A stretch of 40,000 bases of DNA. Origin: Lederbergia citri (GTDB lineage: Bacteria > Bacillota > Bacilli > Bacillales > Bacillaceae_C). Shown piece after piece: positions 18,327 to 24,801 of this stretch (positions are counted from its first letter, which is position 1; each line of letters begins with the position of its first letter). Below the pieces are notes generated by a model, which saw only the letters and a list, made by a program, of their open reading frames with translations, was not told the origin of the DNA and searched no databases. The position numbers and the translations under genes are program-made. Location: NCBI RefSeq assembly GCF_018343625.1, contig NZ_JAGYPG010000001.1, positions 190,342 to 230,341 on the forward strand. The letters run 5' to 3'.

Positions 18327-18355
18327 TTGACTGATAGCCAAGTTCATTGTATATT
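18327..18355 (+). promoter_or_regulatory. sigma-A-type promoter for the tRNA locus
   Basis: TTGACT (18327-18332), a 17-nt spacer, then TATATT (18350-18355). It lies about 25 nt before the tRNA-like fragment. Confidence 0.6.
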
Positions 18356-18380
18356 ATTAAGTGTCCAGTTTAATACATAC

Positions 18381-18420
18381 GATCCGATAGTTCAGTGGGA
18401 GAATACATCCTTGACAGGGA
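18381..18420 (+). pseudogene. truncated 5' half of a second tRNA-Val(GAC) allele
   Basis: GATCCGA-TA-GTTCAGTGGGAGAAT-A-CATCC-TTGACAG-GGA has acceptor, D-arm, anticodon stem and loop in register with the intact tRNA but with a different sequence. It breaks off 3 nt into the 3' side of the anticodon stem. It shares the 11-bp core CCTTGACAGGG with the intact gene. Confidence 0.65.
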
Positions 18421-18438
18421 AACTATCCTTTATATTAC

Positions 18439-18510
18439 GAGCGATTAGTTCAGTGGGAGAACATCACCTTGACAGGGTGAGGGTCGGGGGTTCGAATCCC
18501 TCATCGCTCA
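18439..18510 (+). tRNA. tRNA-Val (anticodon GAC), no encoded CCA
   Basis: Hand-folded cloverleaf. Acceptor GAGCGAT/ATCGCTC, D-arm GTTC-AGTGGGA-GAAC, anticodon arm TCACC-TTGACAG-GGTGA, variable loop GGGTC, T-arm GGGGG-TTCGAAT-CCCTC, discriminator A. Confidence 0.85.
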
Positions 18511-18517
18511 TAGGTTT

Positions 18518-18553
18518 AAGGCACTTTCTAAGAAATTAGAGAGTGCCTTTTTA
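18518..18553 (+). terminator. intrinsic terminator after tRNA-Val
   Basis: AAGGCACTTTCTA...TAGAGAGTGCCTT stem followed by TTTT. Confidence 0.8.
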
Positions 18554-18642
18554 TTTGTCGAGAATGTTATAACATTTAATCGATTTTCTGTATTATTTAT
18601 TTCACGGTGGGATTTTGGCGGGGGAGTTTTTAATCCCTCACT

Positions 18643-19755
18643 TTATTCAAATAATCGTTCAAATTTCTCAATTGCTTCAGTCTCCATTGAAGGTAGTAAA
18701 TGTGCATAAGTGTCCATTGTTATTTTAATTGAACTATGACCAAGCCTTTCTGAAACTACTTTCATTTGAACACCTGCTTTTAACATTAGAGTAGCATGTG
18801 TATGGCGTATTGCATGGAAAGATAAAGTTTTATTTACGGGGCTTGATTTTAGTGTATGACGGAAAATACGTGAAAAGTTATCAACAGATAAGAACTTACC
18901 GTTTTGAGTAGCAATAACTAAGTCATTGTCTTCATACTTATTCGTTTCTTGTTCAATCTTTTGCATTTCTTTATGTTTAATAATGTCTTGTTTCATTTGT
19001 TCCGAGAAGGCAACAAATCTTCCAATTGAGGTCTTGGTACCTTCTTGCATATATCGATCTGTACCCATAGCCGCTCTAACTAATCTTTTTCTGACATTTA
19101 TTGTTTTTCTATCTAAATCAATATCACGCCACTGTAAGGCCAATAATTCCCCACGTCTAAGCCCGGTGTGTGAAGCCAATCTAAATGCAAAAGCATAACG
19201 AGTGTAGCCCTCAGCAAACTCTAAAAGTTCTTTGAGTTCCTTTTCATCAAGTACTTCAATTTTTTTGTTCGTCTCTTTTGGTTTTTCAACCCCATTACAT
19301 GGGTTATACTTGATTTCTTGTCTTTTTAATAGGTCGTTATAATACTTGTTCACAATGTTATATGCTTTTTTTACCGTAGCACTGCTTAAGTTCTTATCAT
19401 ATAAACTGTTTAAAAATAATTGGACATCAGTGGCCTTAATTTGATTAACGGCTTTTTTGTTAAAGAAGGGCTTAATGTGGGTATCAAGTTGCATTTGATA
19501 AACACTTCTTGTGTTATCAGATAGGTTTCTTCTACCATTTAGCCAAACTTGTATATGTTCAGCCATATTGTCTTCAATTTCATAATCCCCACTTAATTGT
19601 CTTTTAAGTTTTTCTCTATCTGCAGTTTCTGCATCTCTAGCATCATCTCTATCTTTAAACCCACTTTGTTTCCTTCTTATTCCCTTATATTGATACTCAA
19701 AGTACCATAACAAATCTTCCTTTTTACTTCTATCCTTGTGTTTGTATTGTGGCAT
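18643..19755 (-). CDS. tyrosine-type site-specific integrase
   Basis: Start at ATG 19755 (GGGGGATGG RBS). C-terminal catalytic signature is present (GLRRGELLAL, AIRHTHATLM, MDTYAHLL). N-terminal arm-binding-like region (EDLLWYFEYQYKG). Confidence 0.85.
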   Translation of the reverse strand: MPQYKHKDRSKKEDLLWYFEYQYKGIRRKQSGFKDRDDARDAETADREKLKRQLSGDYEIEDNMAEHIQVWLNGRRNLSDNTRSVYQMQLDTHIKPFFNKKAVNQIKATDVQLFLNSLYDKNLSSATVKKAYNIVNKYYNDLLKRQEIKYNPCNGVEKPKETNKKIEVLDEKELKELLEFAEGYTRYAFAFRLASHTGLRRGELLALQWRDIDLDRKTINVRKRLVRAAMGTDRYMQEGTKTSIGRFVAFSEQMKQDIIKHKEMQKIEQETNKYEDNDLVIATQNGKFLSVDNFSRIFRHTLKSSPVNKTLSFHAIRHTHATLMLKAGVQMKVVSERLGHSSIKITMDTYAHLLPSMETEAIEKFERLFE

Positions 19756-19791
19756 TCGACCATCCCCCTTTTTAATTAGTTTAGTAGATTG

Positions 19792-19809
19792 TATCACTCC
19801 GGAGTGATA
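19792..19809. promoter_or_regulatory. 18-bp perfect palindrome upstream of int
   Basis: TATCACTCCGGAGTGATA lies about 37 nt upstream of the integrase start. With no loop, it is more likely a dimeric protein-binding site than an RNA hairpin. Confidence 0.4.
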
Positions 19810-24282: not shown

Positions 24283-24375
24283 AAAAATTAAAATATAAAA
24301 TAGTCATATAAAGAGTAGACATTGCGTTTGCTCTTTTTTCTTTTTGTAAATAATACCAATTAAGGAGTGATTATC

Positions 24376-24801
24376 TTGTATAAACACGATATACATAAAG
24401 GATTTACTTATTTATTTTTCTTTATGATAACGATATTTATTCTTATACCATTTGTTCCGATATCTTTTCAAATTGACCAGTTCACTTACATGAATGCTTT
24501 AATTTTTTCTATAATTGGTTCATTTTGTTTTAGTGAAATATATATCGGATTACATGAATCAATTAAGGAAAAGGGATTCCTTGCTATCTTTGTTCGATAT
24601 CTATTTATTCTTCCTGTTTTTGCAATAAATTGTTCTTTAGTCTTATTGGGAAACTGGTTTGCAATGCAGCACAAAATAGTGGATACATTAAATTTTACAT
24701 GGTTTGCAGTTGTTGGAGGCTTTATATGGTTTATTAGTTTCCATTCGGCAAAGTTAGTTCCAAATTTGCCAGCAATGGCATTTAAGAAAAAGGAGCAATA
24801 A
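24376..24801 (+). CDS. small multi-TM membrane protein (141 aa)
   Basis: TTG 24376 lies 9 nt after AAGGAG. About four hydrophobic segments. No motif recognised. Confidence 0.55.
   Translation: MYKHDIHKGFTYLFFFMITIFILIPFVPISFQIDQFTYMNALIFSIIGSFCFSEIYIGLHESIKEKGFLAIFVRYLFILPVFAINCSLVLLGNWFAMQHKIVDTLNFTWFAVVGGFIWFISFHSAKLVPNLPAMAFKKKEQ

Follow-up and report, generated by a model that had tools for sequence, protein, structure and literature searches.

Why does a complete tRNA-Val(GAC) gene lie directly behind the truncated 5' half of another tRNA-Val gene and beside an integrase gene? The question is raised by a locus in a 40-kb stretch of the 4.8-Mb genome of Lederbergia citri (contig C1, positions 190342-230341), which is called here the window and whose own numbering is used unless contig positions are given. 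Results of our analysis indicate that, very probably, a genomic island, designated by us as E1, split the resident tRNA-Val(GAC) gene of the host at its anticodon loop and brought a complete replacement tRNA gene behind the promoter of the host.

A disrupted tRNA gene and its replacement

The only tRNA called by ARAGORN in the window is the tRNA-Val(GAC) at positions 18439-18510 (plus strand), which obtained an Rfam score of 67.3 bits and was also recognized in the tRNA census of the genome. A search of the window with its 3' end gave no second match. A first-pass annotation of the window, made from the sequence alone, had predicted a complete tRNA at this position, and these calls bear it out. 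The preceding 5' half (18381-18420, plus strand), referred to below as the stub, is not called as a tRNA by ARAGORN or Rfam. Its positions 18381-18419 are colinear with the first 39 nt of the complete tRNA and identical to them at 31 of the 39 positions. The differences include the acceptor strand (GATCCGA in the stub vs. GAGCGAT in the complete tRNA) and the 5' strand of the anticodon stem (CATCC vs. TCACC). The similarity of the stub to a tRNA ends 3 nt beyond the anticodon loop, and an 18-nt gap follows, exactly as described in the first-pass annotation. The 11-mer CCTTGACAGGG at the anticodon loop occurs in the window at two sites only, one in the stub and one in the complete tRNA (chance expectation 0.26; two occurrences were reached in 2 of 100 shuffles). 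It had been described as the only long stretch identical in both, which proved incorrect, as a 16-nt D-arm block, TAGTTCAGTGGGAGAA, is identical as well (18388-18403 and 18446-18461).

Genomes of related bacteria contain the uninterrupted site. In five genomes of the same genus, the same TRAP-transporter (DctM) gene and promoter directly precede an intact tRNA-Val(GAC) gene, and the homology of these genomes to the window ends at position 18420. The stub, which we assign as attL, matches the initial 40 nt of this gene in one relative (G012) without a difference and comprises the 5' strand of the acceptor stem, the D-arm, the 5' strand of the anticodon stem, and the loop. In relatives G012 and G008 the native flank continues past the tRNA gene and no integrase gene follows. 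This is the opposite of the outcome that the first-pass annotation had named as evidence against an insertion, namely, the fragment and the tRNA together in relatives that lack any island. In G008 and G004 strong homology to the contig resumes only at C1:253400.

The first-pass annotation had also proposed that the displaced 3' half of the resident gene should lie at the far end of the element, as the core followed by ATG...TTCGAATCC...TCGGATCA. Our search of the whole genome revealed three tRNA-Val 3' halves downstream of the stub and on the same strand (R1, R2, and R3). The first of them, R1, matches this prediction exactly. It is located at C1:245224-245265 (L009:14883-14924, plus strand), which is 36.5 kb downstream of the stub and 14.9 kb past the end of the window, and consists of the core and the intact displaced 3' half, in the form of the core and ATGGGG...TTCGAATCC...TCGGATCA, with its own terminator. 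We assign R1 as attR. The stub joined to C1:245233-245265 forms a perfect 72-nt tRNA-Val(GAC), in which 7 of 7 acceptor pairs and 5 of 5 anticodon-stem pairs are present and which does not differ by a single letter from the intact gene that G012 has at this site. Both junctions can thus be read directly, and the intact site in relatives together with the stop of homology at 18420 identifies the interval between the stub and R1 as a 36.5-kb insertion. Neither the stub nor R1 has decayed, so either the insertion is recent or there was little time for these sequences to diverge.

The sequence common to attL and attR is the 10-nt core TTGACAGGGA, located at the end of attL (18411-18420, plus strand), precisely where the homology of the relatives to the window stops. 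The 11-bp core of the first-pass annotation is shared by the stub and the complete tRNA, but its second position differs at attR, so that only 10 nt remain common to both attachment sites. A functional tRNA was rebuilt neither at the stub, where ARAGORN and Rfam made no call, nor at R1, where the census of genome tRNAs made none.

The limits of E1 are therefore window position 18421 and C1:245223 (~36.5 kb). The suggestion that the island extends past the 40-kb window and includes the sulfur clusters holds, as these limits enclose the clusters. Inside E1 the core is followed by an island-borne spacer (18421-18438, plus strand; 18 nt when counted after the core and 19 nt when counted after GGG), the complete tRNA, its intrinsic terminator (18518-18549, plus strand; a 14-pair stem and a T run, conserved in related elements), a candidate arm-type integrase-binding site, and the integrase gene (18643-19755, minus strand). 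The latter encodes a tyrosine integrase of 370 aa (Pfam Phage_integrase, 4.9e-30, and SAM-like N domains). The open reading frame (ORF) listed for it begins with GTG at 19797 and has 384 codons for amino acids, while the start used in relatives is ATG at 19755. The remaining part of the window (19756-40000), in which genes were assigned with Pfam and PHROGs, belongs to the body of E1, and in G012, G008, and G004 none of this DNA separates the tRNA from the native flank.

The two ends of E1 as arms of one attP

The attP of E1 was reconstructed by joining the left flank of R1, the core, and the sequence from the spacer onwards, and it aligns on both arms with the corresponding region of the element of Bacillus methanolicus PB1. 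A candidate arm-type motif is present in both elements at -148 and about +190 from the core. In E1 its P'-arm copy is GGTGGGATTTTGG (18606-18618, plus strand), and the near-identical P-arm copy is GGTGGGATTATGG (L009:14735-14747), 148 nt before the attR core; the binding of integrase to these sites is presumed. The motif changes in step on the two arms, as it has the form GGTGGGATT(A/T)TGG on both arms of E1 and GGTGAATTTTTGG on both arms of the B. methanolicus element, at the same distances.

The cargo of these two elements is almost unshared. What they have in common is the integrase and tRNA module, both ends, and two small ORFs (window 24367-24801 and L009:10710-10961; 46% and 56% identity, respectively, by tblastx) that belong to no recognized family. 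A search of Pfam and PHROGs with the 83-aa ORF near the far end, common to both elements, found no family. The products of the two ORFs are candidates for element-specific functions, such as that of an excisionase or a regulator.

Recurrence of the arrangement in Bacillales

The integrase of E1 belongs to a clade of about 15 proteins (48-99% identity), all of 370-391 aa, whose next relatives are at most 40% identical. We read the genomic context of nine clade members; two further members are located at contig ends. The layout of E1, that is, a host promoter, a host 5' half ending with CCTTGACAGGG, a spacer, tRNA-Val(GAC), a terminator, and the integrase gene, was found in six other Bacillales genomes or contigs. 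They represent a Neobacillus metagenome-assembled genome (MAG; integrase of 97% identity, with tRNA and spacer identical to those of E1), B. methanolicus PB1 (73%), metagenomic contigs L043 (72%) and L042 (66%), Virgibacillus dakarensis (64%), and Metabacillus sp., where only a remnant of the integrase gene is left and the displaced 3' half was not found. The spacers of all these loci have 18-20 nt and are clearly homologous to each other and to that of E1. The host 5' halves differ in their acceptor strands (GATCCGA, GATCTGT, GATTCCT, GATTCCG, and GACTTGT) as well as in their anticodon stems, whereas the base at which the junction falls is identical. The displaced 3' half of the B. methanolicus PB1 locus was found on the right strand at a distance of about 38.5 kb, and it again completes the 5' half to a perfect tRNA. 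The perfect join in E1, the intact genes of relatives, and the presence of the same module behind different host halves elsewhere agree with the model of the first-pass annotation, in which the resident gene was invaded by an element with a complete tRNA-Val of its own.

Two clade members, those of Exiguobacterium (53%) and contig L041 (66%), are associated with a classical single tRNA without a stub. In L041 (1378-1572) the integrase gene lies beside a single tRNA-Val(GAC) of host type. In the integrase tree the loci of the replacing type are in one clade (support 99/97), and L041 is nested inside it with weak support (80/70). As the spacers are homologous, we infer a single origin of the replacing design and a later change in L041. 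The latter may be a reversion to a classical attP, e.g., by recombination through the anticodon loop of the element's own tRNA.

The core is duplicated exactly in the element's own tRNA in E1 and in three other elements. In another three (L038:3746-3817, L042:2746-2817, and L043:2558-2629), the anticodon-stem flanks of the replacement tRNA (GTTGACAGC and GCTTGACAGGC) differ from the core CCTTGACAGGG. Such differing flanks would keep the integrase off the element's own tRNA as a second core.

Function and expression of the island tRNA

According to the tRNA census, the genome has no tRNA-Val(GAC) gene other than that of E1. The structure of the element tRNAs is conserved: in the six distinct sequences, all stem positions (100%) are paired, and compensatory changes occur in 14 of 21 pairs. 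This number was reached in none of 500 shuffles, and the signal was lost when the partners were slid.

The only good match to a sigma-A promoter (TTGACT-17-TATATT; 18327-18355, plus strand; 10 of 12 in the promoter scan) lies ahead of the stub, and in G012 and G008 it is found, with identical sequence, before the intact tRNA gene. It is thus the promoter of the host's resident tRNA-Val gene. The scan detected no promoter-like site between the stub and the island tRNA, and the 18-nt spacer is too short for a promoter. The folding energy of the presumed primary transcript is modestly below that of shuffled sequences (z = -2.5). This fold did not recover the cloverleaf and is uninformative as to processing.

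Proposed mechanism and alternative explanations

The arrangement is most probably explained as follows. The attP of E1 would have recombined, via the 10-nt core TTGACAGGGA, with the resident tRNA-Val(GAC) gene, present as a single copy, at its anticodon loop. In classical tRNA-targeting islands, attP contains the 3' portion of the target gene; the P' arm of E1 has in its place the 19-nt spacer and a complete foreign tRNA-Val(GAC). Integration would then leave the 5' half of the host gene as a dead stub (attL) and exile its 3' half 36.5 kb away (attR), and the promoterless island tRNA would land directly behind the promoter of the host tRNA. The island tRNA is predicted to be transcribed with the stub as a leader, to be cut out by RNase P, and to replace the lost function. 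Since such an event requires a match in the conserved anticodon loop only, hosts with different tRNA-Val stems would be open to one and the same element. What the sequences suggest is that the host promoter drives the island tRNA, that this tRNA complements the lost one, that the design is of benefit to host range, and that E1 is mobile at present.

Several observations weigh against this reading or limit its reach. The genome contains tRNA-Val(UAC) genes, and in Bacilli this tRNA may read all four Val codons. The bacterium might therefore tolerate the loss of tRNA-Val(GAC) and perhaps have no strict need of the island tRNA. The integrase of L041, a locus of classical layout, is inside the clade of the replacing type, which means that the architecture is not strictly clade-defining. 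Scans of 43 genomes of the family, 400 genomes of the order, metagenome contigs, and viral contigs did not detect the attL/attP junction pattern beyond genome G000, from which we conclude that this family of elements is rare in the collections searched. Searches with Pfam and PHROGs recognized no excisionase (recombination directionality factor) in E1. Finally, E1 may be composite, given its second tyrosine recombinase, a resolvase fragment, and how little it shares with the B. methanolicus element.

The alternative that survives best accepts that E1 split the resident gene but regards the island tRNA as cargo, which serves to escape tRNA-targeting defence nucleases or to supply codons, with tRNA-Val(UAC) covering all Val codons. 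At least three tRNA-Val(UAC) genes in the genome, the differences between the core and the anticodon-stem flanks of the tRNA in three elements, and the anti-defence role raised for phage tRNAs by Guerrero-Bustamante and Hatfull (PMC10865867) speak for it. However, the isoacceptor and the anticodon always match the disrupted gene, and the tRNA is always 18-20 nt from the crossover and devoid of its own promoter, a position that makes sense only if integration switches the tRNA on. We consider this alternative unlikely.

Much less probable still is the possibility that the stub and the spacer form a conserved structured leader or a regulatory RNA of the tRNA. The stub would indeed be transcribed as a 5' leader, and the z-score of the fold could be seen in this light, but it is dominated by the tRNA and the terminator. 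Moreover, the arrangement is absent from relatives of the same genus, and the stub differs from host to host, whereas the spacer moves together with the element. Least credible of all is the origin of the stub as the decayed upstream copy of a tandem tRNA-Val duplication unrelated to the island: for all the 31/39 identity and the identical 16-nt D-arm, in relatives the gene is single and intact and its 5' half equals the stub, the partner 3' half of the stub lies 36.5 kb away, and the same spacer and tRNA follow unrelated host halves elsewhere. Both these explanations were rejected on comparison with the relatives.

With the split and replacement of the resident gene by E1 as the preferred explanation, a further question is whether the promoterless complete tRNA within attP is an adaptation. 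It would make expression of the tRNA conditional on integration behind the promoter of a host tRNA. It would also remove the need for pairing between a 3' half brought by the element and a 5' half of the host, so that the host range could extend across genera, and decay of the integrase gene or of the exiled half would make the foreign replacement of the host tRNA permanent, for which Metabacillus sp. would be an example. We see the arguments for and against such an adaptation as evenly balanced.

The tRNA-Val(GAC) site as a recurrent target

Downstream of R1 and its terminator there is an integrase pseudogene (C1:245367-245872, minus strand), which has in-frame stops and encodes a product of 40-57% identity to the E1 integrase. 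It is the remnant of an older classical element, designated by us as E2. It is followed by the decayed 3' half R2 (C1:246966-247004; L009:16625-16663) and, about 2.3 kb further, by the more decayed R3 (C1:249322-249359; L009:18981-19018). Two decayed remnants thus follow E1 in tandem, and the locus is a tandem array and a recurrent target, whose older occupants are classical elements that brought a 3' half with them. R2 and then R3 were considered as the original 3' half of the host gene, an assignment weakened by the extra 3' halves and similar terminators that relatives also carry.

In relative G012, the intact tRNA is followed after 1.35 kb by a further tRNA-Val 3' half, whose terminator is similar (L031:1693-1794, G012:C61), which marks the tRNA-Val(GAC) site as a hot spot of integration throughout the genus. 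An ORF in the array (L009:17221-17592; C1:247561-247932, minus strand) contains about ten tandem 30-nt repeats (of the cca ggg aaa ccg ccg taa ccc ata cct tgg type) and encodes a repeat protein rich in Gly, Tyr, Pro, and Met, which matches no Pfam family. A region of repeats homologous to this ORF is present also downstream of the tRNA in G012.

Gene content of E1

The G+C content of E1 is 32.9%, compared to 36.2% for the contig. In the window its cargo includes genes of a DUF5986 protein, an HTH-ImmA/IrrE fusion, small unknown ORFs, a RuvC-like nuclease, and two paralogous sulfur-transfer clusters (rhodanese/TusA/DsrE/MBL/TauE). Beyond the window (L009:1-14882) there are genes of DsbD/thioredoxin proteins, a TehB-like methyltransferase, a second tyrosine recombinase, a helicase-like protein of 879 aa, and a resolvase fragment. 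The last genes before attR (L009:11380-14703, plus strand) encode a 581-aa protein of no recognized family and, behind it, a 510-aa Ser/Thr protein kinase. Among the ~45 ORFs of E1 scanned with Pfam or PHROGs, many of which had no match, no capsid, tail, terminase, or lysis families were found, and the RuvC-like nuclease was the only match of phage type. E1 is apparently a non-phage island.

The second tyrosine recombinase is a short XerC/D-like protein of 274 aa (L009:3484-4308, minus strand), and the resolvase fragment comprises 120 aa of a serine-resolvase N-domain (L009:9893-10255, plus strand). Their presence suggests that E1 is composite or acquired other mobile DNA. In the Neobacillus MAG, which has the module with an integrase of 97% identity, homologs of the sulfur clusters are on another contig (G430:C4:210706-221873; 75-84% DNA identity). 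The sulfur cargo therefore need not be linked to the integrase module.

Relation to known tRNA-targeting elements

Classical tRNA-targeting islands and prophages with the crossover in the anticodon loop were reportedly discussed by Williams in 2002 (NAR 30:866, cited in PMC11476347). E1 resembles such islands (Islander, PMC4383910) in the location of the integrase gene beside a tRNA gene, in the crossover at the anticodon loop, and in the occurrence of tandem arrays at one tRNA gene, and also in that the displaced fragment of the target marks its distal end in direct orientation (R1, plus strand). It differs from them in that it does not regenerate the target: the core is followed by an unrelated 18-nt spacer instead of a 3' half, both halves of the host gene are displaced from each other by E1, and the 5' stub remains at attL.

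A closer parallel is the tRNA-dependent lysogeny of actinobacteriophages, including Fionnbharth (K4), cluster L phages, Gaia, and others (Guerrero-Bustamante and Hatfull 2024, mBio, PMC10865867). In these phages the core has 8-17 bp, the tRNA is not rebuilt, and a cognate tRNA encoded by the phage is needed for viable lysogens. The same integrase family includes relatives that rebuild the target in the classical way. The authors pointed to the Lactobacillus prophage Lj965 (PMC10865867). E1 shares with these phages an integrase of the tyrosine type (Pfam Phage_integrase), an attB within a tRNA gene, with both junctions in the anticodon loop of tRNA-Val(GAC), a core of similar length (10 nt), the lack of a rebuilt functional tRNA at attL and attR, and close integrase relatives that use the classical mode. 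A cognate tRNA-Val(GAC) is likewise carried by E1 and by all six related elements.

The differences concern the hosts, which belong to Bacillales and Actinobacteria, respectively, and the gene content, as in E1 no phage structural genes were seen and the cargo is of sulfur-transfer and redox type. The tRNA of Fionnbharth is encoded elsewhere in the phage genome, overlaps gene 37, and has its own demonstrated promoter (PMC10865867). In contrast, the tRNA of E1 is inside attP, 19 nt from the crossover, and promoterless, so that integration itself couples it to the promoter of the host. In addition, near-identical Bacillales elements reside in hosts with incompatible tRNA stems. The requirement for the tRNA was demonstrated in the phages; for E1 it is hinted at indirectly, by the status of its tRNA as the sole tRNA-Val(GAC) and by the compensatory changes that conserve its structure.

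Among elements of Firmicutes, the Lactobacillus johnsonii prophage Lj965 (Ventura et al. 2003), as far as it is described in PMC10865867 and PMC3714127, is similar to E1 in that its tRNA target is not rebuilt and it encodes its own cognate tRNA; according to the same descriptions it differs in being a prophage with four tRNA genes. What is new in E1 relative to tRNA-dependent lysogeny is thus the taxon, the apparently non-phage character of the island, and the promoterless tRNA embedded in attP.

Our findings extend the concept of tRNA-dependent lysogeny, proposed in 2024, past actinobacteriophages to islands of Bacillales that look non-phage. The design is more compact, as the tRNA is in attP and would be switched on by the capture of the host promoter. 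The two hosts in which integrases of 97% identity were found have tRNA-Val acceptor strands that differ at three positions. No single 3' half could pair with both, which provides a concrete reason for this design. From a practical point of view, pipelines that seek a regenerated tRNA and a 3' repeat would misplace the left end of E1, and the cassette of integrase gene, attP, and tRNA (~1.5 kb) could be used in Bacillaceae, e.g., B. methanolicus, as a single-copy integration vector of broad host range. For the biology of these bacteria, E1 documents a route by which mobile elements can turn over the tRNA genes of their hosts.

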